DNA of 64,000 bases from Gemmatimonadota bacterium (GTDB lineage Bacteria > Gemmatimonadota > Gemmatimonadetes > Gemmatimonadales > GWC2-71-9), in the NCBI GenBank assembly GCA_036679645.1, contig JAZDCY010000063.1, positions 1-64,000 on the forward strand, written 5' to 3'. Positions 48,232 to 63,887 of this stretch are shown here, one piece after another. A program made the translations under genes and the position numbers. The first letter of the stretch is position 1. Each line of letters starts with the position of its first letter. The notes beneath the pieces were generated by a model, which had not been told where the DNA came from, made no database searches, and saw only the letters and a list, made by a program, of their open reading frames with translations.

Positions 48232-48735
48232 ATGACCGTACAGCGCCTGTTGCGAGAGGGTCTCGTCACCGGTCTCGTCGGAGCCACGGCCGTGGCAGTA
48301 TGGTTTTTCCTGGTCGATCTCGTGGCGGGCCAGCCCTTCTACACCCCCGCCATGCTTGGCTCAGCGGTCTTCTGGGGACTGCGCGATCCGGCGCTGGTGG
48401 AGATTACTTTCCCCGCGGTAATCGGCTACACGATGCTGCACGTTATGGCATTCGGCCTGGTTGGGATGATTGCCGCGGTGCTCGCGGCACTCGTGGAAAG
48501 CTTTCCCTCCACGTTATTCATCGTCGTGGTCTTCTTCGCGATCTTCGAAGTGGGCTTCTACATCGTTGTGGCCATTCTCGCGCAACCCCTGCTCGGCGGG
48601 CTCGCCTGGTCGAGCGTCGCAATCGGCAACTTGGTCGCGGCTGGGGGTATGGGATTCTTCCTATGGCGCGTGCACCCGCGGATACGCCAGGGACTCGCCG
48701 ACCATCCGCTGGGAGAGACGGCCGACGGGGAGTGA
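48232..48735 (+). CDS. Hypothetical 4-TM membrane protein
   Basis: Four hydrophobic segments, TPAMLG, intramembrane His (YTMLH). Confidence 0.75.
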   Translation: MTVQRLLREGLVTGLVGATAVAVWFFLVDLVAGQPFYTPAMLGSAVFWGLRDPALVEITFPAVIGYTMLHVMAFGLVGMIAAVLAALVESFPSTLFIVVVFFAIFEVGFYIVVAILAQPLLGGLAWSSVAIGNLVAAGGMGFFLWRVHPRIRQGLADHPLGETADGE

Positions 48736-48782: not shown

Positions 48783-49385
48783 CTACCTCAACCGTCGGCT
48801 ACCGTTCCCTTGATAGGCGTACCGCAGGGTGACACATCCCGGCACCGTCCCGGGACAGTAGTAGCCCAGAAACTCGACCTTGGCGTAGTGCCCGTCGCGG
48901 GTGCGAATGGCGTACACATGACCCTTGGGCTCGAGCACGTGGGAGAAAAGGCTGTACCGGTACCAACGCGTGAGCGCGGCGTTCGCGGTATCCGCACCAA
49001 AACGCGTCGCGCGATAGCCGTCGGCCGGCGCCTCGGTGACCGCGCCGAATCCGACCGGGCCCAGGTCGATCGCGTCCCCTGAGGCCATGACGTGAAAGCG
49101 CCGGAACGCGAGATCCCAACCGGCGGTATCGGGCACGTCGAGCGCGGCACCCGACGCGAACGAGAAGAACCGCCACGCGCGGTCGCTACCGGCGTCGAGT
49201 GTCACGGTATCGATCACGAGGCTCTCAGGAGGTACGGCGCGGGCCGCCCTTGGAGTGATCTCGAACTCGAGGACGTCGCGCGGCACGAGCGAACTGGCCA
49301 CGAGAAAGCCGATGGCAAGCACGAACACACCAAAGCCGGTCGCGAGACCTATCTGCGCGCGGCGGGAGGGGCCCGGAGATGACAT
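48783..49385 (-). CDS. HmuY-family heme-binding protein with N-terminal TM anchor
   Basis: WRFFSF..G, WDLAFRR, WYRY, VYAIRTRDGHYAKVEFLGYY, TLRY; TACCAT -10 box 7 nt before ATG 49385. Confidence 0.8.
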   Translation of the reverse strand: MSSPGPSRRAQIGLATGFGVFVLAIGFLVASSLVPRDVLEFEITPRAARAVPPESLVIDTVTLDAGSDRAWRFFSFASGAALDVPDTAGWDLAFRRFHVMASGDAIDLGPVGFGAVTEAPADGYRATRFGADTANAALTRWYRYSLFSHVLEPKGHVYAIRTRDGHYAKVEFLGYYCPGTVPGCVTLRYAYQGNGSRRLR

Positions 49386-49414
49386 GGCGGCCATGGTAGC
49401 CGGGGGCCGACCGA

Positions 49415-49837
49415 TTGTCCAATGATGCTGCTGCGAGCCGCAGGAGCGACGCGACGGTGACCGAACGGTGGCCCGCGGCCCGCGCCCTCAAGTTCCGGCA
49501 GGCGGCATTCGTCTACCTCCATACGGCGATCCTCTATGAGTCCGCGATGTACGCCATGATGCGATCCGGCATGGCGCCAGATCGCCTCGGCCCACCAGCC
49601 GTGTGGCTCCTCCTTGGCGCACTGATCGCGGCACTCGTCGTGAGCGGGATCTACTGGTGGCAGAACGTGTGGTTCGTGCGCGTGGTGTGGGCCGTCCACG
49701 GGATGCGGCTCCCATGGCTGATCAACGGGGCGTTCTTCGCAGAGACTGCCCGACTGCCGACGGCATTCTATCTTACGGCCATCGTGGTCGTCGTCATCAC
49801 CCTGTGGGCGCTCGCGCGCGCTGGATGGGATCTATGA
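49415..49837 (+). CDS. Hypothetical membrane protein
   Basis: About four TM segments; stop overlaps next ATG; start may be GTG 49457. Confidence 0.7.
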   Translation: MSNDAAASRRSDATVTERWPAARALKFRQAAFVYLHTAILYESAMYAMMRSGMAPDRLGPPAVWLLLGALIAALVVSGIYWWQNVWFVRVVWAVHGMRLPWLINGAFFAETARLPTAFYLTAIVVVVITLWALARAGWDL

Positions 49838-50679
49838 TGAGCTTCCGAACCTATTTCGACGTCACCGGCGAGGACCGATCCCAGCTGGGCGCCCAGGTCG
49901 AGGACCAGCGCGCGCAGGTGCGGGAACGCCTGGCATCCGTCCGGACGACAGTTGCCGTGATGAGCGGAAAGGGCGGGGTTGGGAAGAGCTATCTCACGGC
50001 CTCCCTTGCAGGGGAACTCGCGGCACGGGGACGCGCCATAGGGGTGCTGGACGCCGACCTCCGCAGCCCCACTGTTGCTCGGCTGCTGGACGCCTCCGGT
50101 CCGTTACGGGTCGTCGAGCACGGCGTGGAGCCCGCGGCGGGGCGAGATGGCATTCGGGTCATCTCCAGCGACTTTCTCCTCGACGACGGCCAACCGCTTA
50201 CGTGGCGTGGTCCCGAAGCCGAACGGCACCTGTGGCGGGGCGCCCTCGAGGCCGGCGTGCTGCGCGAGTTCCTCGCGCACGTCGTGTGGGGCACACTGGA
50301 CGTGCTGCTGATCGACCTCCCACCCGGGGCCGATGCGGCAACGGAACTGGCACCTCTGGTTCCGGACATGGCCGGCACGATAGCCGTGACCATTCCGTCG
50401 GAGGAATCGCGGCGGTCGGTGGAACGGGCCATGCGGGCGGCGCGCGACGCGGGGCTCACGTTGCTGGGCGTGGCGGAGAACATGAGCGGATATGCCTGCG
50501 CCGAGTGCGGGCATACTCGTCCGCTCTTCGCCGGCGACGCGGGCGCGCGGCTGGCCGACGAGTTTCAGGTCCCGCTGCTGGCGCGGATCCCGTTCGACCC
50601 AGGGGCAGGGAGCCTGGTCACCTCTCCCAGCGCTCCGGTCGGGCAACTCATCACGCACCTCGAGGCTGCGCTCTCATGA
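49834..50679 (+). CDS. Mrp/NBP35 (ApbC) family P-loop ATPase, Fe-S carrier-like
   Basis: SGKGGVGKS, LDADL, WRGP, IDLPPG, ENMS..ACAECG, IPFD. Confidence 0.9.
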   Translation: MMSFRTYFDVTGEDRSQLGAQVEDQRAQVRERLASVRTTVAVMSGKGGVGKSYLTASLAGELAARGRAIGVLDADLRSPTVARLLDASGPLRVVEHGVEPAAGRDGIRVISSDFLLDDGQPLTWRGPEAERHLWRGALEAGVLREFLAHVVWGTLDVLLIDLPPGADAATELAPLVPDMAGTIAVTIPSEESRRSVERAMRAARDAGLTLLGVAENMSGYACAECGHTRPLFAGDAGARLADEFQVPLLARIPFDPGAGSLVTSPSAPVGQLITHLEAALS

Positions 50680-51134
50680 AATTCCTCTGCATCGACTGCG
50701 ATGAGCAGATGGTATTCGAAGACCGGCAACAGCCCGGAGACGGCACCTTCGCGGCGGCGTTTCGCTGTCCGGGATGCGGGCGGCGGATGGCGCTGCTGGC
50801 CAATCCCATGGAGTCCCAGTTGGTGGGATCCCTGGGGGTCAAGATCGGAGGCCGTGAGCTCGACGAGCAGCCGTTCGAGCTGACGCGTGCCCAGATGGTC
50901 GGCAAACCGGACGCCTTCGACGATGCCGAGCCGAGCGAGGCGGCGACTGCGGGGAAGCCGGGCCCGGTCGTCTGGTCCCCGCAGGCGGAGGAACGGCTGT
51001 CCCGGGCGCCGACCTTCGTGCGCGGTATGATCAAGCGCATCTACGCAGAGTACGCCCGGGACCAGGGCATTGCAGAAATTACCCCCGAGGTGATGGACAC
51101 CGCGCGCACGGACCTTGGGCTGGAGGGCATGTGA
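50676..51134 (+). CDS. Zn-ribbon + PCP_red-domain protein
   Basis: MKFLCIDC...FRCPGC; C-terminal WSPQAEERLSRAPTFVRGMIKRIYAEYARDQGIAEITPEVMD. Confidence 0.8.
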   Translation: MKFLCIDCDEQMVFEDRQQPGDGTFAAAFRCPGCGRRMALLANPMESQLVGSLGVKIGGRELDEQPFELTRAQMVGKPDAFDDAEPSEAATAGKPGPVVWSPQAEERLSRAPTFVRGMIKRIYAEYARDQGIAEITPEVMDTARTDLGLEGM

Positions 51135-51376
51135 GCGACGACCCGTTGGAGCGGGTCGTGCGGGACCTACGTATTCAGATCGATGCGACCCTGTGTGTTG
51201 CGTTCGGAGACTGCATCGATGTCGCGCCCGAGGCCTTTCAGCTCGACGGCAACGATGTAGTGGCCTTTGTCGAGCCCGATGGCGTCGGACGGGAACGCCT
51301 GCTTTCGGCCTGCGACGTGTGCCCGGTGGACGCGCTCACCGTCTGGTCCGTCGACGGCACTCAACTGGTCCCTTGA
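51131..51376 (+). CDS. Single-cluster ferredoxin (probably [3Fe-4S])
   Basis: IDATLCVAFGDCIDVAPEAF...ACDVCPVDAL; second Cys of CxxCxxC replaced by Phe. Confidence 0.88.
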   Translation: MSDDPLERVVRDLRIQIDATLCVAFGDCIDVAPEAFQLDGNDVVAFVEPDGVGRERLLSACDVCPVDALTVWSVDGTQLVP

Positions 51377-51402
51377 CATATCCACGGGCTGGTTGGCATA
51401 GT
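51373..51402 (+). promoter_or_regulatory. Putative sigma70 promoter of the USP-radical SAM-oxidase operon
   Basis: TTGACA(51373)-N18-CATAGT(51397) with TG extended -10. Confidence 0.45.
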
Positions 51403-51539
51403 CCGCCAGGCAAAAAAATGACGGTACGGCACGGCGCTTTGGGAGGGGGCGGGGGACGGGGCGGTGAGGGCGCCGTTGATACAAGTTGGGCCGGGCTCCG
51501 GCCCTGCGACTGCGACCTGCGACCCCTGGAGGGGACAGG

Positions 51540-53451
51540 ATGTACCGTGAGGTATTCGTCCCCGTCGACAACTCGCAGCATGCCGATTGGGCTGTCGACC
51601 GAGCGATCGAGTTATGTGCCGCCAGTGACGGGCGCATTACCGGCAATCATGTGTACGCCGCCCGCTTGCATGACGTGAGATTCCGGCAGCTCGAAACCGG
51701 TCTCCCCGCACAGTTCCAGACCCCCAAAGAGATCAAGCGGCAACGGAAGGTCCACGACAAGCTGATCGAGAAGGGCCTCCAGCTCATCTCCGACTCGTTT
51801 CTCGATCAGGTTGAGAACCGCTGTGCCAAGAGCTCAATCCCGCTGCGGCGCCAGCTGCTCGAGGGGATCAACTACGAGGAGATCGTCAAGGAGGTCAACA
51901 GCGGGGCAGGGCAGCTACCCAGCCTCATCGGCTTCGATGCCAACATCGCGTCCCGCTACGATGGCGGCGAGACGGTACGCGGCGACGTGCGCCTCGACGC
52001 AGATGGCCGCATTGTGGGTGAAGAGGAGGATCTCGCCGACAAACTCGCCGGTACCTCCGGTCGGGACTACGATCTCGTCATCCTTGGGGCACACGGCATC
52101 GGGCGGCAACCGTACTCGCAGCTCGGGGGCGTGGTCGCACGGGTAGCGCGGGGGGTGCAGAGGGACACGCTCATCGTCCGCGACGATCGAACACTGCGCC
52201 CAGACGTTCGATGCGACCCTTTACGTCTGCAGCGCGTTCGACGTCGAATACCACCACGCGGTCTTCAACAACATCAAAGACGTCCTCTCAGCCCGCGCCT
52301 CGAAGGTATTCAAGTTCGAGGAGCAGGAGGAGCTGCACAACAACATCATAGACAAGGGCCTCCTCAAGCTCTCGCAGGCGCACCTCAAGCGCGCTGAGAC
52401 GATGGCGCAGGAGTTTCCCGACGTCGAACTGGTCACGCAGATCCTGATCGGCAAGCCCTTCCAGGTCATCCTCCAGTGGGCGGAAGAGATTGAGCCCAGT
52501 CTGCTGCTCATCGGTCGGCACGGGGCGCATCGCATCGATGGAACGGCCATAGGCTCTCAGACGGAGAACCTGCTGCGCCTGGCGTCGTGCAACACGCTGG
52601 TGACGGGTACGGTGGGGATTCGTCCCGAAGACATTCCGTGGATCGAGGAGGACGGTGAGGCGGGACTCCAGTGGGCTCCCGACGCCGAGGTCCGGATGCT
52701 CCGAGTGCCGCCATTCGCACAGGGCATCGCCCGCCGCGCAGTGGAGGAGTTCGTCAAGGAGCGGGGCGGGGACGTCGTCACGAACAAGGGGCTCGACGAG
52801 GCCATCCAGAAACTGCTGCCAACTCACATGCAGCTCATCATGGGGATCGGTGACGCCGAGGAATTGGCGCGCGCCGAGGTGAAGGCCGACGAACAGATGG
52901 CCGCCACCGTGGTCATGGGTTCGGAGGACGATACGGAGCCCGCCGGTGCAATGGTGGATGTGAAGTGCCCCATTACGGGACACGTTACCGTTCGGGAGCG
53001 CACCACCGCCGATCCATCCGTGTGGACCCGTGAGGCGTTCGCGCGGCTCGGTGTCGTGCCGCTGATCGCCCGGCCGCTGGCGCGGAACACGGTCGAGAAG
53101 TTCGCGCGCACCCAAGGTTTGTGGCGCATCGCCACCCACATCATGGACGAGAACAAGCAGGCCATGATCGAGGCCGACGAGTTCGACGCCGAGACCATGA
53201 TGGGCATGTTCCGGGAGCTGCGCGCCAAGCAGATCCGCGCGGAGGCGGAAGGCGGCGATGCCCTGTCGCCGGAGATGCGCACGTTCATCGAAGAGGCCAA
53301 GGCGTCGGGTGTCTCGCGGTGTCCCATACGGGACATCGAAGAGCAGACCGCAAAGTGTCCCGTCGATTTCAAGACAATGACACCCGAAGACGCAAAGGCG
53401 GCCGTCGAGGAGCACATGAATCGGGAAGGGACGGGGGCATCCAAGACGTGA
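51540..53451 (+). pseudogene. Tandem universal stress protein + two PCP_red domains; disrupted by deletion/frameshift near 52197
   Basis: Frame 1 MYREVFVPVDNS...LVILGAHGIG..LGGV..RV..IVRDDRTL; frame 2 from 52198 AQTFDATLYVCSAFDV...LIGRHG..IGSQTENL, then WAPDAEVRMLRVPPFAQG and WTREAFARLGVVPLIAR. Confidence 0.8.
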
Positions 53452-54776
53452 GTGGAACGCCGCTCGCGTTCCTCGAAAACGCGCCGGCGGCGGCACCCGG
53501 CACCTTTATCCCCCACGTCGTCGCGTGGAACCTCACGCGACGGTGTAACCTCGAGTGCGCCCACTGTTACATCACCGCCGGACCCGATGAAACCGCCGAC
53601 GACGAGCTGTCCACCGACGAGTGCTTCCGGATTGCGGACGAGATCCTGGCGCTGAACTCCTCGCCGATGTTCGTCCTCTCGGGTGGCGAGCCGCTGCTGC
53701 GCCCCGATCTCGCCGATATTGCGTCGTTTGCGGTCGAGCGCGGCGCCACTGTCGTCGTCGGCACCAACGGGACGCTCCTCACCGATGACCGGATCGACGA
53801 ACTGCACGGCGCCGGCGTGAGCGGCGTGGCGGTGAGCGTCGATTCGCTCGAGTCATCGTACCACGATCGCTTTCGCCACGGACACGGTTCGCTCAAGGCA
53901 ACTCTCGAGGCCGTCGAGCGACTTGGCCGCCACCGGCTCGATTTCGTGGTGCAGGCAACACTCACGAAGGGCAACCGTGAGGAGCTGCGTGATCTCGTAG
54001 CCTGGGCTGCCGAGAAGGGAGCGGTGTCGTTCAACGCTTACTTCCTGGTATCGACGGGGCGCGGGTCGGGCATGCGCGACCTATCGCCCGACGACTACGA
54101 GGACCTGCTCACCACGCTGGTGGATCTTCACGTGGAGTACCTCGGCCGCATGATGGTGCGCGCGAAATGCGCGCCGCATTTCATGCGACTGGTGCACCAG
54201 CGCGCGCCCGATTCACCCATACTGAACTACGAGACGCGCTGTCCGTGCGGCGTCCAGTACTGCCGGATTACGCCCGACGGGAAGCTCACTGCCTGTCCCT
54301 ACCTCCCGCGCGCCGCGGGCGATCTCCGCGAAGCCTCGTTTGCCGACATATGGAATACGGCCCCACTCTTCGTGGAGCTACGCGGCGGCGAGTTGGGCGG
54401 AAAATGCGGACAGTGCAACTACCGCAAGCTCTGTGGTGGGTGTCGGGCACGCGCGTATGCGCTGGAAGGAGACCCAATGGCCGCCGATCCGTCGTGCGCG
54501 TATGAACCGGATTCGGCCGCTACCCTGATTGAGCCGACACGTGCCGTCACGTATGGGAAGCCCGCCACTCCGGGCTTGCAATGGACACCTGACGCAGAGG
54601 CGCGAATGCGCCGCATTCCGTCATTCGTGCGCGGCGTGGTAGTCGACCGCGTGGAGCGATTCGCGCGCGACCGGGGACATCATGAGGTGACAGTCGATCT
54701 GCTGACCGAGGTACGGAGCGCAATGCCGCTCGACTTCTCCAAGCTCAAACCCTTCTTCCTGCGTGACGATGCCTGA
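53448..54776 (+). CDS. Radical SAM/SPASM protein (AhbD/NirJ-like) with C-terminal PCP_red domain
   Basis: WNLTRRCNLECAHCY, LSGGEP, KCAPHF, CPCG...CPY...KCGQC..LCGGCRARAY..DPSC; WTPDAEARMRRIPSFVRG. Confidence 0.9.
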   Translation: MSGTPLAFLENAPAAAPGTFIPHVVAWNLTRRCNLECAHCYITAGPDETADDELSTDECFRIADEILALNSSPMFVLSGGEPLLRPDLADIASFAVERGATVVVGTNGTLLTDDRIDELHGAGVSGVAVSVDSLESSYHDRFRHGHGSLKATLEAVERLGRHRLDFVVQATLTKGNREELRDLVAWAAEKGAVSFNAYFLVSTGRGSGMRDLSPDDYEDLLTTLVDLHVEYLGRMMVRAKCAPHFMRLVHQRAPDSPILNYETRCPCGVQYCRITPDGKLTACPYLPRAAGDLREASFADIWNTAPLFVELRGGELGGKCGQCNYRKLCGGCRARAYALEGDPMAADPSCAYEPDSAATLIEPTRAVTYGKPATPGLQWTPDAEARMRRIPSFVRGVVVDRVERFARDRGHHEVTVDLLTEVRSAMPLDFSKLKPFFLRDDA

Positions 54777-56490
54777 CTTGTACGCGCTCCTGCAGGCGGC
54801 CGCCGATGGGGCGACGGCCAGTTACCGCGATTTCCCCGTCATCGGGAGCCGCGCCGCCGTGTGGATCGCGGCGCAGGTACACCTCATGTTCGCCGCCTTT
54901 GTCCTGGGCGTGCCGATGTTTGCCGTGATCACCGAACTGATCGGCATCGTGGCCAGGGACAGCAAGTACGACAAGCTGTCAAAGGAATTCACGCGTCTGC
55001 TGGTCTTCGCATACAGCGCCACCGCGTTGTGGGGCGCGGTGTTGGTGTTCTTCCTCACCACCCTGTACCCCAGATTCTGGACGCACATGACGGAGATCTT
55101 CGGCCCGTCCATGTGGGTCTACGTCGGACTGTTTTTCGTCGAGTCGTTCACTCTCTACCTGTACTACTATGGGTGGGATCGCTGGAACGTGGGACGCGCC
55201 AAGTGGGGACATTGGGGACTCGGCCTGCTACTGAATGTCTGGGGCACGGCCGTCATGATCATCGCAAATGGCTGGCTGACGTATATGATGTCGCCACCGG
55301 AAGGCGCAACGGTCGCCGGGCTTCCAGATGGCGTGTCGACGTGGAACGCAATCGCCAACGCCACGTGGATGCCCATCAACATCCACCGCCTCATCGCGAA
55401 CGCCGTCTTCGGTGGCTCGATCGTCGCGGGGTACGCCGCGTACCGTTTTCTCGCCGCCCGTACCGACGAGGAACGGGCGCACTACGATTGGATGGGGTAC
55501 GTCGGCAATTTCATCGCGATCTCGACGTTCATCGTGCTGCCGTTTGCCGGCTACTACCTGGGGCGCGAGATCTACGAGTACAACCAGCAGATGGGCATCA
55601 CGATGATGGGCGGCTTCATGAGCTGGTTGTGGATCGTGCAGGCGGTGCTCATCGGCGTGTTGTTCCTTGCGGCAAACTATTACCTGTGGATCGGCATGGG
55701 CCGCATCCCCGGTGCCGAACGATTCATGCCGTACACCAAGTGGATGCTTCTCATCCTCATCATCGGGTGGCTGGTCTGGGCGACCCCTCACACGATGATC
55801 GCGAGTCGGGCTGAGATGGCGGCGATGGGCGGGTCCCACCACCCATTCCTGGGCATTCTCGGGGTCATGAGTGCAAAGAACACCGCCGTGAACTTCATGA
55901 TCCTCACGACTTTCCTCTCGTTTCTACTCTATCGGCGCGCCAACAAGGAACCCACCGTGTCGTGGGCCCAGACCGGGACACTCATCGAGGGTGCAATGTT
56001 CGCTGTCTCTGCCGGGGTCGTCCTCTTCTACGGGATCTACGGGTACTTCGTCGAGGCCATCGTCCGCATCGGGTTCAGCGTCTACCAGGTCGGTGCGGTG
56101 CTGGCGTGCATCATTGGTGTCACGGTGATCGACATCGCGTTGTTGCGCGGCGCGAAGTCGCGCGGCGCCATTCGCTGGGGCCAGATGCCGGAGCGGTCGC
56201 AGTACGCGCTCTTTGTGCTCGCGGTAACCTTCACCTGGCTCATGGGACTCATGGGCTTTGCCCGCAGCGGTATCCGGCAGCACTGGCACGTGTGGGAGAT
56301 CGTGCGCGACACCAGCGCGTCCGCCGCGACGCCGGCCCTTGGGTACGCCGCATGGGTCATCAGCGCGTGCGTGCTCATTTTCCTCTCGCTGGTGGCGTTC
56401 ATCTTCTGGCTCGGCGGACTCGCCGAACGGGCGGTGGCCAAAGGGACGACGATCCCGGTACCCGTACCGGCAACGGGAAGAGGACACTAG
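54763..56490 (+). CDS. Cytochrome bd subunit I-like ('bd-like') membrane protein
   Basis: AQVHLMF and NIHR heme His positions, FFVES, ANGWLTYMMSP, RSGIRQHW (degenerate GRQPW); many TM segments; no cydB follows. Confidence 0.85.
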   Translation: MTMPDLYALLQAAADGATASYRDFPVIGSRAAVWIAAQVHLMFAAFVLGVPMFAVITELIGIVARDSKYDKLSKEFTRLLVFAYSATALWGAVLVFFLTTLYPRFWTHMTEIFGPSMWVYVGLFFVESFTLYLYYYGWDRWNVGRAKWGHWGLGLLLNVWGTAVMIIANGWLTYMMSPPEGATVAGLPDGVSTWNAIANATWMPINIHRLIANAVFGGSIVAGYAAYRFLAARTDEERAHYDWMGYVGNFIAISTFIVLPFAGYYLGREIYEYNQQMGITMMGGFMSWLWIVQAVLIGVLFLAANYYLWIGMGRIPGAERFMPYTKWMLLILIIGWLVWATPHTMIASRAEMAAMGGSHHPFLGILGVMSAKNTAVNFMILTTFLSFLLYRRANKEPTVSWAQTGTLIEGAMFAVSAGVVLFYGIYGYFVEAIVRIGFSVYQVGAVLACIIGVTVIDIALLRGAKSRGAIRWGQMPERSQYALFVLAVTFTWLMGLMGFARSGIRQHWHVWEIVRDTSASAATPALGYAAWVISACVLIFLSLVAFIFWLGGLAERAVAKGTTIPVPVPATGRGH

Positions 56491-57276
56491 ATGCTCGCGA
56501 CCAACCTAAAGGTCCTGGCCGTGGCACTCCTGACCATCGGATTCTATGCACTCGTGGCCAATACTATTCCCCAGCTGGAGTCGGAGGTGCCGGAAAACCT
56601 CGCGCTCGGCAGCGATGTCACCGCCGAGCAGCTCGTCGAAGCGGGCGAGCGCGTGTATCAGGGAGCCGGCGGATGTACAGCCTGTCACGGGCTTGGGACC
56701 CGGGCGCCCAACCTCCTCACCGATCACGCCGGTGAAGGCGCGATAGGGTCCCGGTGCGGAAGCAGGGAATCGGACAAGGACTGCAAAGCGTACCTGTACG
56801 AGTCGTTGACGGACCCGGGAGCGTATGTCGTCGACGGATTCGAGAGCATCATGCCCGACATGCGGCGGCAACTCCCGGAGGATCAGATCTGGGCGACCGT
56901 CGCCTTCCTCCAGTCCCAAGGCGGAGAGGTAACCGTCACCGGCGCCGATCTGCCGGCGGACGAGGAGGGAGGACAAGCCGACGCGGCAAGTGCACCGCAA
57001 CGATCGGCAACGACCGACCCGTTGCAGCTCCTGAGCGAAAACGCGTGCCTCGGCTGCCACGCCATCGATGGCGCAGGCCCGCCGATCGGTCCCTCGTTCG
57101 ACGCGATCGGCGCCCGCATATCGGCCGATCGTATTCGCCGCGGCATCATCGATCCCGACTCTGAGATCGCCCAGGGCTTTGACGCAATGGCCGGTGTCAT
57201 GCCCAAGATATTTGGAGATCAACTCTCCGCGGCGCAGCTCGAGGTACTCGTTGCCTTTCTCGCGGGGAGGCGCTAG
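56491..57276 (+). CDS. Membrane-anchored diheme cytochrome c
   Basis: CTACH and CLGCH, each followed by (ESL/GII).DP....GF...MP distal-Met motif. Confidence 0.9.
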   Translation: MLATNLKVLAVALLTIGFYALVANTIPQLESEVPENLALGSDVTAEQLVEAGERVYQGAGGCTACHGLGTRAPNLLTDHAGEGAIGSRCGSRESDKDCKAYLYESLTDPGAYVVDGFESIMPDMRRQLPEDQIWATVAFLQSQGGEVTVTGADLPADEEGGQADAASAPQRSATTDPLQLLSENACLGCHAIDGAGPPIGPSFDAIGARISADRIRRGIIDPDSEIAQGFDAMAGVMPKIFGDQLSAAQLEVLVAFLAGRR

Positions 57277-58097
57277 TGGCACCACGTAGATCGTACTTGC
57301 GGCACCCCTTCTGGCAAGCGGTTGTCCTGCTCGTGGCAGCCTACCTGTTGTTCAAGTGGGGTATCGCGATCATTCCCCCCCTCTTTGGGATGGCCAGTGC
57401 ACCGGTCCCAACGAGCGTCGTGCTTCAGTACATGCTGACCGCCATGGTTGGCATCCTGATCTACGTGAGTGATAACGAGGACCGTTGGCGCCAGTTCAAG
57501 GAACCGCTCAACGCCGTCCTCGTAGATGGAGATAAGCGCTGGATGCGCGGGGCGTTGATGGTGTTCGTGCCGGTTTTGGTCGGCTTCGTCACCTATGAAC
57601 AGGTCCGGCCCAAGGTGTCCGCCCCAATTCAGTTCCGTGCGATCCACCCAGCACCTCCCGGACAAATCACGTTCCGCGGGCGCACCATTCAGCTCACGGG
57701 ACTCGAGAATCCTCTGCGCAGCCAGGGATCGCGCGAGGATCACTACGAAACGGGTCGCCGCGTTTACTATCAGAATTGCCTCCCATGTCACGGCGACCAG
57801 TTGGACGGCGAGGGGCGCTTTGCACACGGGTTCAGTCCCACGCCGCTTCCGTTCGACGACGCCGGAACGATCGCCCAACTCACCGAGAGTTTCGTCTTCT
57901 GGCGCATTGCCAAGGGAGGACCCGGACTCCCCAACGAGGGAACACCGTGGAATTCGGCGATGCCCGTGTGGGAAGATTTTCTCACTGAAGATGAGATCTG
58001 GTCGGTGATCATCTTCCTGTACGAGCAGAGCGGCTGGGAGCCCCGGCGGTGGGAGGTCGAGGAGGAAGGGGAAGCGGAAGGGGACAGTGATGAATAG
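57276..58097 (+). CDS. Multi-TM monoheme cytochrome c
   Basis: Three N-terminal hydrophobic helices, CLPCHG, WRIAKGGPGLP, SAMP. Confidence 0.88.
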   Translation: MAPRRSYLRHPFWQAVVLLVAAYLLFKWGIAIIPPLFGMASAPVPTSVVLQYMLTAMVGILIYVSDNEDRWRQFKEPLNAVLVDGDKRWMRGALMVFVPVLVGFVTYEQVRPKVSAPIQFRAIHPAPPGQITFRGRTIQLTGLENPLRSQGSREDHYETGRRVYYQNCLPCHGDQLDGEGRFAHGFSPTPLPFDDAGTIAQLTESFVFWRIAKGGPGLPNEGTPWNSAMPVWEDFLTEDEIWSVIIFLYEQSGWEPRRWEVEEEGEAEGDSDE

Positions 58098-59688
58098 GGC
58101 CGGAAGGCGGAACGGCGGAATGGCGGGAGGAAACGGCGTCGGCCGGGCAGTGACGATACTCGCGCTGGCTTTCGTACTACTTCCCGCCTTCCCGCCTTCC
58201 CGCCTCTCCGCCCAGGATCTCGAACGTGGTAGGGAGCTCTACGACCGTTGGTGTCTTGCCTGCCACGGCGAAACCGGGACAGGGGACGGCGAGGCGGCGG
58301 CGTACATGCTGCCGCGTCCGCGCGATTTCACCGGGGCCCTCTATCAGATCCGCACGACGGCGAGCGGCGAACTCCCGACGGACGACGACTTGCGGCGCGT
58401 CATGGAGCTGGGCATCCCCGGGACCGCAATGCCCGGTTGGACGGACCGCTTGAGTTCCGGCGAGCGAGACGATGTAATCGGGTACATCAAGTCGCTGTCG
58501 CGTTTTTTCGACGGCACTGAGCCAGAACCGTACGATTTCGGCGGTGCGCCCGGTGTGTCGGACGAGGGGATTGCCGAAGGTGCCCGCATCTATCGGGAAC
58601 TGGAATGCTTCAAGTGTCACGGCGATGCCGGCCGCGGAGACGGACCTTCGGCGCCGACCATGACCGACGACTGGGACCATCCAATCCGTCCCGCGGATCT
58701 CACCCGGCCCTGGGCGTTCAACGGCGGCAGCGAGGTCGGCGACATCTACCGACGACTGCGCACGGGGTTGGACGGAACCCCCATGCCCTCGTTCACCGAC
58801 GTGATCGACGCCGAGATCATCACCGAAGAGCAGCTCTGGCGCGTTGCGCAGTGGGTCCGCAGTCTCGCGCCGGGTGACCCCACGGTGCGCGAGGTCATCC
58901 GTGCGGCGCGCACGGAGACAGCCCTTCCCAGCGGCCCGACCGACACCGCGTGGTCCGGCGTGAAGCCCTTTTACATCCCGCTGGTTGGGCAGATCATCAT
59001 GAAGCCCCGGCGGTTCACGCCGACCGTCGACGGTGTTTGGGTGCGCGCCCTGCACGACGGAGAACGCCTGGCGATCCATCTTGCGTGGAGCGATCCGTCT
59101 GCCAGCCCGGACGACGATTGGCAGGACTGGCTCGAGCTGATTGCGCAGACGGTAACGGATGTCGATGGTGCACTCGACACCGTCCAGGGTCCCGACCGGA
59201 TTGCCGTCCAGTTTCCTGCGCGGCGCGTCGAGGGCCTGCAGCGACCGTACTTTCTGGGCGGGGACCGGCGGCGGCCGGTATATTCCTGGCATTGGCAGAG
59301 CACTCCCGATCAATTGCTGGTGGGCAGGGCGACCGGCCTCGATGCGTTTGCGGCGGGCGCTGCCACCGACGTGACGCACGCAGCAGCGTTTACCGACGGG
59401 CAGTGGCAAATACAGCTCACGCGCGCGCGCGTGCCGAGCGATTCGACCGCACCCACGTTCGCCGAGGGGGAAGCGATACCGATCGCGTTCCAGGCGGCCG
59501 ACGGCAGTTCGGGCGAGGATGCGGTCAGTGGATCGGTGAGCGCGTGGTATGCTATTTACCTTGATGTTCCAACACCACCAAGCGTTTTTGTTGCGCCGGT
59601 GGTTGCTGCACTCCTTACGGCAGGACTCGGCGTGCTCGTGGTGACGCGGGCGCAGCGACGCGAACGTGGAGACTCAACGGAGGCATGA
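58087..59688 (+). CDS. Diheme cytochrome c fused to EB_dh/DOMON-like domain, C-terminal TM
   Basis: CLACHG..PRPRDF..GTAMP; CFKCHG..GTPMP; VRALHDGERLAIHLAWSD, DRIAVQFP, GQWQIQLTR. Confidence 0.85.
   Translation: MMNRAGRRNGGMAGGNGVGRAVTILALAFVLLPAFPPSRLSAQDLERGRELYDRWCLACHGETGTGDGEAAAYMLPRPRDFTGALYQIRTTASGELPTDDDLRRVMELGIPGTAMPGWTDRLSSGERDDVIGYIKSLSRFFDGTEPEPYDFGGAPGVSDEGIAEGARIYRELECFKCHGDAGRGDGPSAPTMTDDWDHPIRPADLTRPWAFNGGSEVGDIYRRLRTGLDGTPMPSFTDVIDAEIITEEQLWRVAQWVRSLAPGDPTVREVIRAARTETALPSGPTDTAWSGVKPFYIPLVGQIIMKPRRFTPTVDGVWVRALHDGERLAIHLAWSDPSASPDDDWQDWLELIAQTVTDVDGALDTVQGPDRIAVQFPARRVEGLQRPYFLGGDRRRPVYSWHWQSTPDQLLVGRATGLDAFAAGAATDVTHAAAFTDGQWQIQLTRARVPSDSTAPTFAEGEAIPIAFQAADGSSGEDAVSGSVSAWYAIYLDVPTPPSVFVAPVVAALLTAGLGVLVVTRAQRRERGDSTEA
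58098..58212. repeat. Inverted octamer arrays within a signal-peptide coding region
   Basis: GGCCGGAA GGCGGAAC GGCGGAAT GGCGGGAG (58098-58129) versus TTCCCGCC x3 + TCTCCGCC (58181-58212). Confidence 0.8.
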
Positions 59689-60434
59689 TGCGACATCTTG
59701 TGGCTTGTTCGATAATTGGTGTACTGGCGTGCGGCGGTGGCGAGGGCGGATCTGACGGCGGCGACGACGCGGCAACGGTGGCCCCGTTGGGAACCGCGTC
59801 CATCAACGGCGTGGTGACTTTCGACGGTACGCCTCCGGCCAATCCGACCATCGACATGGCCGATGAGCCGGAGTGCGTCGCCAAGTACACCGACGACGCG
59901 CGGGATCCGATAGTGTCGGTTACCGACGGAATGCTCGCCAACGTGTTTGTGCGGGTTACCGGGGGCCTGCCCGCCGGGCCGTACCCCATGCCCGCAAGCC
60001 CGGCGGTCATCGATCAAGATGGGTGTCTGTACCACCCCCGTGTCTTGGGTGTCATGGTTGGACAGGACCTCGATATCCGCAACAGTGACCCGCTGCAGCA
60101 CAACATCAAGGCCGTGCCCACGGAACAGCGCGGCTTCAACATCAGCCAGCCACGAGCTGGAATGACCACGACCCGTTCGTTCAACACGCCGGAAGTGATG
60201 GTCCCGTTGGAGTGCAGCGTGCACGGGTGGATGAATGCGTACCTGGGCGTCGTTGACCATCCCTATTTCGCCACATCGGGCGCCGATGGCACTTTCTCGA
60301 TTCCCGGTCTCCCCGCCGGTAGCTATACGCTCGAGGCCTGGCACGAGACGCTGGGGACCCGGACGCTCGAGGTCGAGGTCGACGATGGTGGCAGCGTAAC
60401 CGTAACCCTCGTCTTCGGCTCCTCCACGAGCTGA
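59685..60434 (+). CDS. Cupredoxin-like / carboxypeptidase-regulatory-domain lipoprotein
   Basis: GVLAC lipobox; IDQDGCLYHP, NSDPLQHNI, ECSVHGWM, G.F.IPGLPAGSYTLEAWHE. Confidence 0.8.
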   Translation: MMRHLVACSIIGVLACGGGEGGSDGGDDAATVAPLGTASINGVVTFDGTPPANPTIDMADEPECVAKYTDDARDPIVSVTDGMLANVFVRVTGGLPAGPYPMPASPAVIDQDGCLYHPRVLGVMVGQDLDIRNSDPLQHNIKAVPTEQRGFNISQPRAGMTTTRSFNTPEVMVPLECSVHGWMNAYLGVVDHPYFATSGADGTFSIPGLPAGSYTLEAWHETLGTRTLEVEVDDGGSVTVTLVFGSSTS

Positions 60435-60446
60435 GGAGTACACTCC

Positions 60447-61133
60447 ATGGGTTCCTTCCTGGACTGGTTCCTTCCGCCGGGCGCCTCGACGTTCGCCGCG
60501 GACATCGACCGCATCTACTATGCGGTGCTCATCATCACCGGCATCGCGTTCGTGATCGTCGAAGCCGGCCTCGTCTGGTTCGCGATCAAGTACCGGGCGC
60601 GTCCGGGCCGAAAGGCCACGTACACGCACGGGAGTATGCGCGCGGAGATGATCTGGACGGCAATACCTGCCGTCTCGGTGGTCGCCCTTGGCATTTGGAG
60701 CGGCACCGTGTGGAACAACATCAAGGCGCGCGACAGCATTCCAGAGGGCGCCTTGGAATACGCCGTGATGGTGAGCCAGTTCGAGTGGATGTTCACGTAC
60801 GCCGGACGGGACGGTGAGATCGGCACGGCGGATGACTTCACGTTACGAAATCAGCTACACGTTCCGGTTGGGCGTGCAGTAGTGCTCCGGCTGCAATCCG
60901 AGGACGTCATCCATTCCCTGTTCATCCCCGCGTTCCGCGTCAAGCAGGACATCGTACCGGGAATGCATATGGCCGTCTGGTTCGAGGCGACGCAAACAGG
61001 AAGATTCGAAATCGCATGCGCCGAGTTGTGCGGGAACGGTCACACGACGATGGGTGCGATGACGACCGTGCATTCTACCGCGGAATTCGACGAGTGGGTC
61101 GCGAGCCGCCCTGCAACTACCGCGCTGAGATAG
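60447..61133 (+). CDS. coxB: Cytochrome c oxidase subunit II (no fused cyt c)
   Basis: EMIWT, QFEWMF.Y, DVIHS, CAELCGNGHTTM CuA motif. Confidence 0.95.
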   Translation: MGSFLDWFLPPGASTFAADIDRIYYAVLIITGIAFVIVEAGLVWFAIKYRARPGRKATYTHGSMRAEMIWTAIPAVSVVALGIWSGTVWNNIKARDSIPEGALEYAVMVSQFEWMFTYAGRDGEIGTADDFTLRNQLHVPVGRAVVLRLQSEDVIHSLFIPAFRVKQDIVPGMHMAVWFEATQTGRFEIACAELCGNGHTTMGAMTTVHSTAEFDEWVASRPATTALR

Positions 61134-61142
61134 AGGAAACGA

Positions 61143-62906
61143 ATGGCGACGACGGCACTACCTCAGGAGGCGGCGCACGCGGAAGCGCACGAACTTCCGT
61201 TCATCCGCAAATACATCTTCTCGACCGACCACAAGATCATAGGCATCCAGTTCCTGCTGATGAGCCTGGCGTTCCTGGGCATAGGCGGCTTCGCGGCAAT
61301 GCTGATACGGTGGCAGCTCGGATTCCCCGACGTGGCCATCCCCGGCGCGACAATTCTCCCAGAGACCATGGCGCCGGGTGGGTATCTGCTGCCCGAGTTC
61401 TACAACTCCCTGGTCACGATGCACGGCACGTTGATGGTCTTTTTTGCCGTGATGCCTTTGCTCGTGGGCGTATTCGGGAACTTTTTGATCCCGTTGAAGA
61501 TCGGTGCGCCCGACATGGCGTTTCCGCGACTCAACATGTGGTCGTTCTGGATCGCCGTTCCCGCTGGGGTCCTCATGCTGTCGGGATTCTTCGTTGAGGG
61601 CGGGGCAGCGGGCGCAGGATGGACCTCGTACGCTCCGCTGTCGGCGAATAGCGAGTACTCGGGGGTGTTTCTGGGCCAACAGTTGTGGTTGTTGAGTCTG
61701 GCCGTGCTGGGGCTCTCGTCGATCCTGGGTGCTACAAACTACATCACGACCGTCGTGAACCTGCGGGCACCCGGCATGACCTGGTTCCGGCTGCCGCTTT
61801 CCATCTGGGCGCTGTTCATCACTGCGATTCTCGTGCTCCTCGCAATCCCGATTCTTTCCGGGGCTGCGATCATGCTGTTCTTCGATCAGACGATCGGCAC
61901 GCACTTCTTCGACGCAACCGGGGGAGGCCAGCCCCTCCTGTGGCAGCACCTGTTCTGGTACTTCGGCCACCCGGAGGTGTACATCCTCATCCTGCCGGGA
62001 ATGGGTATGGTCTCTGACATCATCGCCAACGGGTCGCGCAAGCCGGTGTTTGGCTACCATTCGATGGTGTATGCGCTCATCGCAATCGCGTTCCTGGGCT
62101 GGATCGTCTGGGGTCACCACATGTTCCAGAGCGGCATGAACCCGACGCTCGGCATGGGCTTCATGATCTCCACGATGCTGATCGCAGTCCCGTCCGCCAT
62201 CAAGACATTCAATTGGATGGGGACGATGTGGCGCGGCAGCATACGGTTCCACGTCCCCATGCTCCATGCAATCACGTTCGTCGCGATGTTCGTGATTGGC
62301 GGGCTCTCCGGCATCTTCATGGCGTCAGCGCCCGTGGACATCTTCATCCACGACACGTACTTCATCGTCGCGCATCTCCACTACGTGCTGTTTGGCGGGT
62401 CGCTGTTTGCGATCTTCGCGGCGGTGACCTACTGGTATCCCAAGATGTTCGGCCGGATGATGGATCCGTTCTGGGGCAAGGTACACTGGGCAATCACGGC
62501 CGTCGCCTTCAACGTGACGTTCTTCCCAATGCACGTGCTTGGCGCCCAGGGCCACATGCGCCGAATCTACGACCCCAACCAGTACGAGTTCCTGCAGCCG
62601 CTGCAGGGCACCAACACGCTCATCACGATCGGCGCTCTGGTGTTGTTCGGCGCGCAGTTCATTTTCATGGGCAACTTCGTCATCAGCTGGTTCAAGGGGA
62701 GGAAAGCACCCGACAACCCATGGGACGACAACGGCGTCGAGTGGACGGTCCATTCACCGCCGCCACACCTGAACTTCGCGGAAACGCCGGTGATCTATCG
62801 GGCGGCCTACGAATACAGCTCACCCCTCGTCGAGGAGGACTACTTGCCGCAGACGCGTAACCTTGGCAGCGATTCCGGACCGGCCGCCAAGCCGGCCGCA
62901 GGCTGA
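61143..62906 (+). CDS. coxA: Cytochrome c oxidase subunit I, type A1
   Basis: STDHK, TMHG, GWTSY.PL, WYFGHPEVY, WGHHM, AHLHY, MRRIY. Confidence 0.98.
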   Translation: MATTALPQEAAHAEAHELPFIRKYIFSTDHKIIGIQFLLMSLAFLGIGGFAAMLIRWQLGFPDVAIPGATILPETMAPGGYLLPEFYNSLVTMHGTLMVFFAVMPLLVGVFGNFLIPLKIGAPDMAFPRLNMWSFWIAVPAGVLMLSGFFVEGGAAGAGWTSYAPLSANSEYSGVFLGQQLWLLSLAVLGLSSILGATNYITTVVNLRAPGMTWFRLPLSIWALFITAILVLLAIPILSGAAIMLFFDQTIGTHFFDATGGGQPLLWQHLFWYFGHPEVYILILPGMGMVSDIIANGSRKPVFGYHSMVYALIAIAFLGWIVWGHHMFQSGMNPTLGMGFMISTMLIAVPSAIKTFNWMGTMWRGSIRFHVPMLHAITFVAMFVIGGLSGIFMASAPVDIFIHDTYFIVAHLHYVLFGGSLFAIFAAVTYWYPKMFGRMMDPFWGKVHWAITAVAFNVTFFPMHVLGAQGHMRRIYDPNQYEFLQPLQGTNTLITIGALVLFGAQFIFMGNFVISWFKGRKAPDNPWDDNGVEWTVHSPPPHLNFAETPVIYRAAYEYSSPLVEEDYLPQTRNLGSDSGPAAKPAAG

Positions 62907-62917
62907 GGGGGAGAGAC

Positions 62918-63595
62918 ATGGCGCACCCCGCTGTGATGCAGACGCCCGCCAATCGCGAACTCGGCTCCGGCGTCTACAACGAGAAACTCGGGATCTGGGT
63001 GTTCCTCGGGTCCGAGGTCATGTTCTTCACGGCCCTGATCGGCTCATACATCATCCTGCGGTTTAGCAACCCCGGCGCTTTCGCGGCACCCAACACGGTG
63101 CTGAACATTCCCGTCACTGCGACCAACACGTTTCTGCTCATCTGCAGCAGCGTCACGATGGTCAAGGCGTTCGCGGCCGCTCACGATAACGACATGGCGA
63201 AGATGAAGTGGTATCTGCTCGCCACGACTCTCATCGGGGCCTCGTTCGTCGGCGTCCAGATCTACGAGTACACGCACCTGATCCACTCGGGATTCCTGCC
63301 GAGTGGTCTGCGCGAGGGGAGTCACTTTGCCGAGCTGGCGACGGCGGGTGAGCTTGGACTCGGAACGCCAGATGCGGGAGTTGCCGGCATCTACGGATCG
63401 ACGTTCTACACGATGACCGGCTTCCACGGTTTCCACGTCACCGTCGGCGTGATCTGCCTGACGTATGTGACCACAAAGGCCTTTCGCGGCAAGTACGCGC
63501 AGACCGACCACCGTGGCATTGAGGTCATCGGGCTGTACTGGCATTTCGTCGATCTCGTGTGGATTATTCTATTCACGATCGTCTACCTGATCTGA
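62918..63595 (+). CDS. coxC: Cytochrome c oxidase subunit III
   Basis: FLGSEVMFF, NTFLLICSS, TGFHGFHV, GLYWHFVDLVW. Confidence 0.96.
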   Translation: MAHPAVMQTPANRELGSGVYNEKLGIWVFLGSEVMFFTALIGSYIILRFSNPGAFAAPNTVLNIPVTATNTFLLICSSVTMVKAFAAAHDNDMAKMKWYLLATTLIGASFVGVQIYEYTHLIHSGFLPSGLREGSHFAELATAGELGLGTPDAGVAGIYGSTFYTMTGFHGFHVTVGVICLTYVTTKAFRGKYAQTDHRGIEVIGLYWHFVDLVWIILFTIVYLI

Positions 63596-63608
63596 GGCTC
63601 GGGACGCG

Positions 63609-63887
63609 ATGAGCGAAACCGCCAAATTCAAACACCCGAATTACTGGGCCGTCTGGGGCCTGTTGTTCGCCCTGACGGTGGTGGAGGTCGGGGTGACATT
63701 CCTCCCGTGGGCCAAGGAGCTACTGATCATCCTCCTGCTTGGGATGGCCATCTGGAAGGCCGTGCTCGTGGCGCTGTACTTCATGCACCTGCGGTTCGAG
63801 AAGATGCGGCTGCGCATCTTCGTCCTCGCCCCGCTCCCGCTCACGGTGATCATCGTGGTGGCGGTGCTCACGGAGTTCGTGTGGTAG
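63609..63887 (+). CDS. coxD: Cytochrome c oxidase subunit IV
   Basis: LTVVEV, KAVLVALYFMHLRFE. Confidence 0.92.
   Translation: MSETAKFKHPNYWAVWGLLFALTVVEVGVTFLPWAKELLIILLLGMAIWKAVLVALYFMHLRFEKMRLRIFVLAPLPLTVIIVVAVLTEFVW

Follow-up and report, generated by a model that had tools for sequence, protein, structure and literature searches.

We found, in a stretch of 64,000 nucleotides (nt) from a Gemmatimonadota genome of 4.05 Mb (contig JAZDCY010000063.1 of assembly GCA_036679645.1, forward strand; hereafter the window), a gene module that we predict, with moderate confidence, to be a dedicated cytoplasmic kit for the maturation of haem and its delivery to an as yet unpurified cytochrome bd-like complex of the OR-N family. 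The core of the module consists of a tandem universal stress protein (USP) and a radical S-adenosylmethionine (SAM) enzyme, both fused to the PCP_red domain (PF08369), while an Mrp-family ATPase, a zinc-ribbon protein with a further PCP_red domain and a ferredoxin are lineage-specific accessories. The module is gained and lost together with the OR-N bd-like complex, a pattern that repeats in three lineages with different gene orders.

In the mechanism that we propose, the radical SAM enzyme would catalyze an AhbD-type radical decarboxylation of propionate to vinyl groups on an iron porphyrin, without O2 or H2O2, and the ferredoxin, where present, is its predicted electron donor. The dedicated Mrp and the zinc-ribbon protein may load or repair the iron-sulfur (Fe-S) clusters of the enzyme. 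The tandem USP is predicted to bind ATP and to hold haem via the His residues of its helical inserts, along with Cys-Pro motifs in this lineage, and would then pass it to the bd-like membrane protein. As a small contact domain, PCP_red would hold the module proteins together; this role is the weakest link of the proposed mechanism. Given such a kit, the haem that it channels is slightly more likely to be haem b than a further modified haem.

Distribution of the module

Our sample of the window genome's own family (60 genomes, one per genus) contains 25 genomes with four to five PCP_red domains, and the same 25 encode a bd-like protein at 75–88% identity; among the remaining 35, bd-like matches of 25–30% identity occur in 15 and none in 20. 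Two further genomes (G018 and G021) have two PCP_red domains each, and the pair in G018 lies in what we take, from its gene names, to be a photosynthesis gene cluster. In the acidobacterial sample (151 genomes, the phylum of G063), the USP is found at 38–74% identity in eight genomes and the bd-like gene in the same eight, with PCP_red in those eight and as a single copy in one more. Across 98 zetaproteobacterial genomes, the bd-like gene is present in seven, and these seven, along with the fragmented G299, have five to ten PCP_red domains; four more have one stand-alone PCP_red, in at least two cases beside AAA-ATPase, NifX-like and glutathione transferase genes. The original prediction, made from the window's letters alone, had tied these genes to the bd-like family, and the co-occurrence is indeed tight in three lineages (25/60; 8/151; 7/98 plus G299).

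A USP-based scan returned 378 relatives, of which we kept the best 80, nearly all from Gemmatimonadota; these loci, many of which end at contig edges, partly overlap the genome samples and are not independent of them. They feature the radical SAM gene in 74 cases, the ferredoxin in 67, the zinc ribbon in 63, the bd-like gene in 60 and mrp in 59. All five loci checked that have no adjacent bd-like gene have it elsewhere in the genome (in G061 only as two fragments). In the usual acidobacterial order, the bd-like gene and the three cytochrome genes come first, followed by usp, the gene of a GNAT protein, mrp, the zinc ribbon and the radical SAM gene. Similar clusters from Nitrospinota and Nitrospirota in the ESM Atlas serve as leads only. 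The supplements of a Nitrospira marina proteome study (PMC8115632) list three detected PCP_red proteins, of which one of 159 residues lies two gene identifiers from bd-like_2 and another of 257 residues adjoins an Mrp-type ATPase; the counts given there do not rise under low O2 (53/45/49 against 50/45/46; 6/5/9 against 8/3/5).

As a separate observation, G299, a genome of short contigs, is the one zetaproteobacterial genome that has the module but no bd-like match; its usp gene (L148:2570–7836) immediately follows the genes of a nitrous-oxide reductase of clade III (lactonase-type) and of a cytochrome c.

PCP_red domains

The window proteins were scanned with Pfam and TIGRFAM-type curated models at their own cut-offs. 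A repeated module of ~45 residues had originally been read as PCP_red, and PF08369 (Pfam gathering cut-off 32.5 bits) matches it above the cut-off at four sites on three proteins: with 55 bits on the zinc-ribbon protein (residues 100–144), with 71 bits over two stretches in the C-terminal part of the USP and with 59 bits on the radical SAM protein (residues 379–423). The whole-genome search finds the domain at these four sites only (Table 1), and among 14 control genomes it is present only in Synechococcus. Pfam likewise places the Mrp, ferredoxin, Usp, radical SAM and SPASM domains and the bd-like gene where they had been expected. The modelled 152-residue protein comprises the zinc ribbon, a disordered linker and a three-helix C-terminal domain, which matches 2kru (Z 8.4, root-mean-square deviation 2.3 over 58 residues) and 2l09 (Z 5.3); the same two structures take ranks 1 and 2 in a Foldseek search with this domain. 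Resemblances of PCP_red to the AAA lid and of the zinc ribbon to NrdR (Z 4–4.9) are of a size that common helical arrangements also give, and were left unused.

PCP_red is known from the C-terminus of BchB/ChlB of dark-operative protochlorophyllide oxidoreductase (DPOR; 2kru, 2ynm) and from the stand-alone Nostoc protein Asr4154 (2l09). Unlike in DPOR, its fusion partners here are a zinc ribbon, a USP and a radical SAM enzyme, and the genome has no other PCP_red; Zetaproteobacteria carry up to 10 copies. In DPOR, PCP_red contacts the L protein.

Several further occurrences lie outside this arrangement. Stand-alone PCP_red proteins (57 residues in L144; also L145, L146 and L147) occur in Zetaproteobacteria without bd-like genes, and the order at L144:4455–7329 is AAA-ATPase (567 residues), NifX-like, PCP_red and glutathione transferase, a run that is a second, unexplained context for the domain. 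Small stand-alone PCP_red proteins in the zetaproteobacterial module end in KCPF or KCPL (L141:5877–6095; L143:6650–6886), echoing the Cys-Pro motifs of the USP. The same-genus genome G040 has a second zinc-ribbon/PCP_red copy (L106:5794–6384) away from the cluster, next to what is presumably a rhodanese-like gene.

The radical SAM enzyme

The enzyme displays the radical SAM motif C33-x3-C37-x2-C40 and the SPASM motif C320-x2-C323-x5-C329-x2-C332-x17-C350, which has the spacing CX2CX5CX2CX17C described for the auxiliary cluster of AhbD (PMC10114771). Its best models are TIGR04055 (NirJ2, 293 bits) and TIGR04545 (AhbD, 291 bits), with a best E to these AhbD-type models of 1e-92 among 44 orthologues; it scores 186 bits against NirJ (TIGR04051, cut-off 515), 170 bits against AhbC and 83–148 bits against peptide-maturase SPASM models. 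The auxiliary motif is found in 29 of the 30 PCP_red-bearing enzymes; since it is also found, together with CX3CX2C, in 62 of 74 relatives without PCP_red, it is not diagnostic for the AhbD type. A tree of 104 catalytic cores (FastTree, midpoint root, from a set without a characterised AhbD) places all 30 PCP_red-bearing sequences in one clade of 33 (Shimodaira–Hasegawa (SH) support 0.90), separate from the AhbD-, NirJ2- and TIGR04053-scoring sequences. It was redone with 104 of 105 sequences after a first tree of 82 (SH 0.997), for which a motif filter had removed 23 of the 105; the 95 outside sequences were chosen by length among 150 matches. At the thresholds used, no column of the 104-core alignment separates the PCP_red-bearing clade from the rest, 40 conserved positions are common to the clade and AhbD-type enzymes, and the nearest relatives without PCP_red score best for AhbD/NirJ2.

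The enzyme thus shares CX3CX2C, the C-terminal motif and its best-scoring models with the AhbD/NirJ2 haem b synthases and TIGR04053 proteins; unlike AhbD, it falls in its own clade, ends in PCP_red, occurs in hosts without AhbA/B and follows the bd-like protein in its distribution. Because of the shared motif, the identity of 33–39% to AhbD-, NirJ2- and TIGR04053-scoring proteins and the separate clade, its chemistry looks AhbD-like and its lineage distinct. We consider it very unlikely that the substrate is not haem but a protein or peptide, with the enzyme introducing, for example, a cross-link in the bd-like protein or a partner: the SPASM family does include peptide maturases, and invariant aromatic and His residues are numerous in the bd-like protein, but the scores of the haem-enzyme models are about double those of any peptide-maturase model, the nearest relatives without PCP_red are best for AhbD/NirJ2 and haem-pathway genes recur as neighbours.

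The haem pathway of the host genomes

The 25 module-bearing genomes feature HemA in 20, full-length HemE in 20, HemH in 21 and ChdC in 19, and AhbA/B (PF17805) exceeds its cut-off in none of 26 module genomes. As HemE, HemH and ChdC are present and AhbA/B absent, these hosts rely mostly on the coproporphyrin route and already have a decarboxylase for coprohaem. A chdC-hemE-hemH operon lies 9–26 kb from the module in G029, G030, G054 and G057, and HemY-type genes are inside or beside the module in three loci; together with the adjacent HmuY gene, these neighbours link the module to haem. The original prediction had allowed that the enzyme might be an ordinary housekeeping AhbD, which the separate clade, ChdC in 19 of 25 and AhbA/B in 0 of 26 speak against; the unusual tetrapyrrole that it proposed remains putative, the CX2CX5CX2CX17C motif being kept and no clade-diagnostic substitution having been found at conserved columns. 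The sirohaem-dependent (AhbABCD) and haem d1 pathways were ruled out (no PF17805 match above the cut-off; TIGR04051 at 186 versus 515 bits).

The coproporphyrin route also bears on a reading in which the radical SAM enzyme is a general O2-independent coprohaem decarboxylase that backs up ChdC, supplies the whole cell under low O2 and is only co-regulated with the respiratory operon; the other genes would then serve this enzyme, and the bd-like complex would be independent of them. An AhbD-like enzyme has been proposed for an anaerobic coproporphyrin route (PMC10114771), and the host counts of HemE, HemH, ChdC and AhbA/B, together with the absence of diagnostic substitutions relative to AhbD types, suit such a role. 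We nonetheless regard it as unlikely, as a general back-up would not be expected to keep, in three lineages, to genomes with a single respiratory family, also where the two are unlinked, the PCP_red proteins of N. marina are no higher under low O2 in the counts of PMC8115632, and the enzyme persists in hosts in which no haem pathway was found. These last are four of the 25 module genomes (G013, G020, G024 and G028; 91–96% complete) without detected hemA, hemB, hemC, hemH or chdC; three of them retain an intact radical SAM gene, and that of G020 is split. They also count against a kit fed on home-made coprohaem, which, if the absence is real, is not the substrate there; an assembly gap can mimic such an absence, as in the window genome, and the same caution applies to all four.

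Because the enzyme is intact in three genomes without a detected haem pathway and coexists with ChdC in others, a bolder possibility, which we hold only tentatively and think rather unlikely, is that OR-N complexes (in Nitrospira, Nitrospina, some Zetaproteobacteria, Gemmatimonadota and Acidobacteriota) use an undescribed haem made by the new AhbD-like clade and delivered by the USP, with PCP_red as a reusable docking tag for assembling the pathway. Such a haem could possibly be made from haem b or coprohaem, for example by further conversion of propionate to vinyl, raising its potential; a new haem type, if true, would be a major finding in tetrapyrrole biochemistry. The retention of the enzyme in these genomes, as well as the neighbouring HmuY gene, would also fit a HemW-like chaperone that inserts unchanged haem b into the bd-like protein, with the USP as store or gate, and HemW itself is an example of a radical SAM protein that inserts haem (PMC10114771). 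However, all catalytic and auxiliary Cys and the 40 positions shared with AhbD are conserved, and HemW belongs to the HemN branch rather than the SPASM branch (PMC10114771), which makes a chaperone quite improbable.

Searches of the contigs of the window genome itself found no ChdC, HemH, AhbA/B, HemE, HemC or HemA. Haem auxotrophy was set aside here as an assembly gap: hemB survives as a fragment that is cut off where contig C85 (2,059 nt) ends, and a same-genus genome has the operon. Elsewhere in the family, no HemE, HemH or ChdC was found in about a third of the genomes (e.g., G002, G004, G007, G008, G012, G016 and G017), including some that are 97–100% complete; haem auxotrophy may thus be widespread among these Gemmatimonadota. 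Module-bearing relatives have an unusually long ChdC (L096:9155–10201; L097; L099); in L096 it carries a Rieske domain at its C-terminus, and its gene is the first of a chdC-hemE-hemH-hemY operon.

The tandem USP protein

The two PCP_red domains first recognised on the USP protein stand, whereas its reading as one open reading frame does not hold for the gene as assembled: a frame switch at 52197/52198 had been missed. Relatives hold 74 more nt at this point, and a contig from run X1 (depth 78.6, no mismatches) has 74 letters exactly at the joint; X1 is the best-matching run and possibly the source sample, and corrects the assembly rather than representing an independent organism. Because both carry the missing 74 nt, the break is an assembly error, a pseudogene is ruled out and the gene is whole, encoding ~660 residues as in relatives.

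The tandem USP fold modelled for a complete relative resembles that of Rv2623 and TTHA0350 (Foldseek E about 1e-12) and has long helical inserts. Window USP and Rv2623, TTHA0350 and UspE have this fold and ATP-binding-type glycine motifs in common (in L001, the G-x2-G-x9-G(S/T) motif is canonical in the second USP domain and ends G-G in the first); unlike them, each USP domain here has a long His-bearing helical insert, and the protein ends in PCP_red domains with Cys-Pro or rubredoxin-like motifs. Identity within the lineage of the window is 70–83%, and six His residues (36, 43, 71, 262, 290 and 354 in L001 numbering) are invariant in 14/14 sequences from three lineages, with the pairs 43/71 and 262/290 spaced alike in the two halves. 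Three Cys-Pro motifs, in most cases RCPIR and KCPV, are found in each of the 45 USPs of the window type, and Cys-Pro is the hallmark of the haem regulatory motif (PMC3570980). From these residues we infer that the USP may bind haem.

A rubredoxin-like CxxC pair replaces the Cys-Pro motifs in other lineages (acidobacterial USP), which suggests an exchangeable sensor segment. Together with the Rv2623/TTHA0350-like fold, the G-x2-G-x9-G(S/G) motifs and a zinc ribbon weakly like that of NrdR (Z 4.1), this could point to a sensor of haem, ATP or redox state by which the respiratory operon is regulated or electron flow gated, with the USP sensing and PCP_red relaying to partners. We judge this decidedly improbable: the Pfam scan shows no DNA-binding or kinase domain in any part of the module, and a sensor leaves the catalytically intact AhbD-like core enzyme unexplained.

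Mrp, zinc ribbon and ferredoxin

The window Mrp is a second paralogue (PF10609, 191 bits) beside an ordinary Mrp on contig C53 (331 bits). Its GKGGVGKS is invariant, the deviant Walker A is present and it keeps ENMSGYACAEC; it has GKGGVGKS, DLPPG and ENM-x-CxxC in common with the Mrp/ApbC/NBP35 Fe-S carriers and, unlike typical members, lacks the FeS_assembly_P domain and falls under the MrpORP and ApbC cut-offs. Cysteines C5, C8, C31 and C34 of the zinc ribbon are invariant. USP-PCP_red and radical SAM-PCP_red proteins recur in all three lineages sampled, while the ferredoxin is missing from acidobacterial module loci and zetaproteobacterial loci have multi-PCP_red proteins in place of the zinc ribbon. 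Counting Mrp, zinc ribbon and ferredoxin among the core, as the original prediction did, was therefore an overstatement: besides the missing ferredoxin, the five Zetaproteobacteria searched show no dedicated Mrp, and the CxxC of Mrp, which serves the bridging cluster in Mrp/ApbC carriers, is lost in 9/44 orthologues.

The bd-like protein and its respiratory cluster

The first 270 of the 573 residues of the bd-like protein can be aligned with bd subunit I, and the protein has ~13 hydrophobic segments by a crude scan (the OR-N subfamilies N1 and N2 have 14 transmembrane helices). It retains equivalents of His19 (H38) and H186 and has no CxxCH; H38, H148, H206, H238, H358 and H507 are invariant in 15/15 bd-like sequences, and c-type cytochromes rather than CydB adjoin the gene. 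Because the His19 equivalent is kept, a haem c motif is absent and cytochromes take the place of CydB, the protein fits the OR-N family of the cytochrome bd superfamily, as defined by Murali et al. (bioRxiv 2021.01.16.426971). The composition of the cluster (bd-like, two c-type cytochromes, EB_dh-domain cytochrome) is that of the bd-like_3/alt_NxrC_2 cluster, which is described as conserved in Nitrospira, Nitrospina and anammox bacteria (PMC6606698); unlike in that description, which mentions no accessory genes, an aa3 oxidase follows here. OR-N bd-like proteins have been proposed as the Nitrospira terminal oxidase or nitrite-oxidoreductase anchor since 2010, and O2 reduction by them is presented as a proposal only. 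Since reverse electron flow, not O2 reduction, is suggested for the matching Nitrospira cluster (PMC6606698), the label "oxidase" is unproven.

A second bd-like cluster of the same genome (contig C7:293000–322600; L085/L086) encodes a 668-residue paralogue (55% identity) along with the three cytochromes seen in the window, additional c-type cytochromes and several proteins with a carboxypeptidase regulatory domain, but no PCP_red module; it may be served in trans by the module described here. G028 and G058 also carry both bd-like types. In acidobacterial loci (L125, L126, L127, L134, L135 and L138), genes resembling ActA, ActB and ActE of alternative complex III precede the bd-like gene, and ActC/F is missing from between them, as though the membrane part were provided by the bd-like protein.

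Weight and significance of the proposed function

Several further observations weigh against a haem kit for the OR-N complex. The support for it is anatomy and distribution (and gene overlaps behind a promoter-like site), and every step of the mechanism is drawn from sequence. Related genomes share genes, such that the counts represent few independent events, and operon linkage alone yields co-occurrence. Both AhbD-type scores of the radical SAM enzyme (291–293 bits) fall below cut-offs of 500, and it is about equally distant from AhbD-, NirJ2- and TIGR04053-scoring proteins. The USP inserts are modelled with low confidence (predicted local distance difference test below 50 at 40–54 and 264–293), the haem site is only putative and the three Cys-Pro motifs are unconserved at these places in the acidobacterial-type USP. 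The CxxC of Mrp is kept in 35/44 orthologues, including that of the window, and deleted in the other nine, and a dedicated Mrp copy was found in none of the five Zetaproteobacteria searched, each of which gave a single ordinary-looking Mrp. Finally, stand-alone PCP_red exists in Zetaproteobacteria without any bd-like gene.

CtaA and CtaB are a dedicated haem kit for the aa3 oxidase. Like them, the nir genes for the haem d1 of cd1 and HemW, which serves nitrate reductase, are accessory genes that accompany a single respiratory enzyme and provide its haem; none of these kits has the present composition or a shared PCP_red. All parts of the module come from known families, and dedicated respiratory cofactor kits are already known; we found no description of this composition in the literature searched, to which most subscription journals do not belong, and the supplements of the OR-N preprint may hold operon context. 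What is new here are the assembly error, the paired presence-absence counts in three lineages, the loss of CxxC in Mrp, the Cys-Pro motifs, the internal promoter and the module genomes without a detected haem pathway. If OR-N complexes need a dedicated haem kit, their expression without it would fail, and the genes for co-expression are now named. Three questions become testable: which cofactor OR-N has, what PCP_red does outside chlorophyll synthesis and whether a universal stress protein handles haem.

Gene order and layout of the locus

Four-nt overlaps join the genes for the 140-residue membrane protein, Mrp, zinc ribbon and ferredoxin, and a 163-nt gap separates the ferredoxin gene from usp. 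From usp onwards, the radical SAM, bd-like, three cytochrome, lipoprotein and cox2-1-3-4 genes follow one another at −11 to +13 nt, including the overlap of the radical SAM and bd-like genes already noted in the original prediction, which measures 8 nt; ctaB is the next gene past the window end. The promoter-like site in the gap has a −35 box that overlaps the ferredoxin stop codon and is hence partly constrained by coding, and a CATACT/TATACT/CATTAT −10 box at 17–18 nt spacing is present in 8/10 relatives. This conserved site ahead of closely spaced genes suggests that usp and the radical SAM gene head the respiratory transcript.

Table 1. Features of the PCP_red module and neighbouring genes in the window
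Feature	Position	Strand	Evidence or occurrence
PCP_red copy 1 (zinc-ribbon protein)	50973..51107	+	57 bits, whole-genome search
PCP_red copy 2 (USP)	52672..52803	+	42 bits, whole-genome search
PCP_red copy 3 (USP)	53023..53157	+	40 bits, whole-genome search
PCP_red copy 4 (radical SAM)	54582..54716	+	63 bits, whole-genome search
Mrp/NBP35-family P-loop ATPase	49834..50679	+	PF10609 191 bits
Zinc ribbon, linker and PCP_red, 152 residues	50676..51134	+	Pfam, structure model
Single-cluster ferredoxin, 81 residues	51131..51376	+	PF13370 33.5 bits; 67/80 loci
Sigma-70-like promoter TTGACA-18-CATAGT, upstream of USP gene	51373..51402	+	Sequence motif
Tandem USP with two PCP_red and three Cys-Pro motifs	51540..53451	+	Usp domains, PF08369
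AhbD-like radical SAM/SPASM enzyme, 442 residues, C-terminal PCP_red	53448..54776	+	TIGR04055, TIGR04545, PF08369
Cytochrome bd-like membrane protein, OR-N type, presumed client	54769..56490	+	PF01654 67 bits
Three c-type cytochrome genes (dihaem; monohaem; dihaem with EB_dh haem-b domain)	56491..59688	+	Family models; complete the bd-like complex
Carboxypeptidase-regulatory-domain lipoprotein, then aa3-type oxidase cox2-1-3-4	59685..63887	+	Family models
140-residue membrane protein, no family; first gene of mrp unit	49415..49837	+	31/80 related loci
HmuY-family haem-binding protein, divergently transcribed	48783..49394	-	PF14064 44 bits; 27/80 loci

Beyond these genes, a 167-residue membrane protein without a Pfam match (window positions 48232–48735, + strand) adjoins HmuY in 16/80 loci and has three paralogues in the genome. 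A pair of genes without Pfam matches (~240 and 195 residues) follows ctaB in this genome (contig C61:65144–66456); the same pair sits between usp and the radical SAM gene in four relatives (L006, L010, L041 and L051), and its products are possibly further members of the module.

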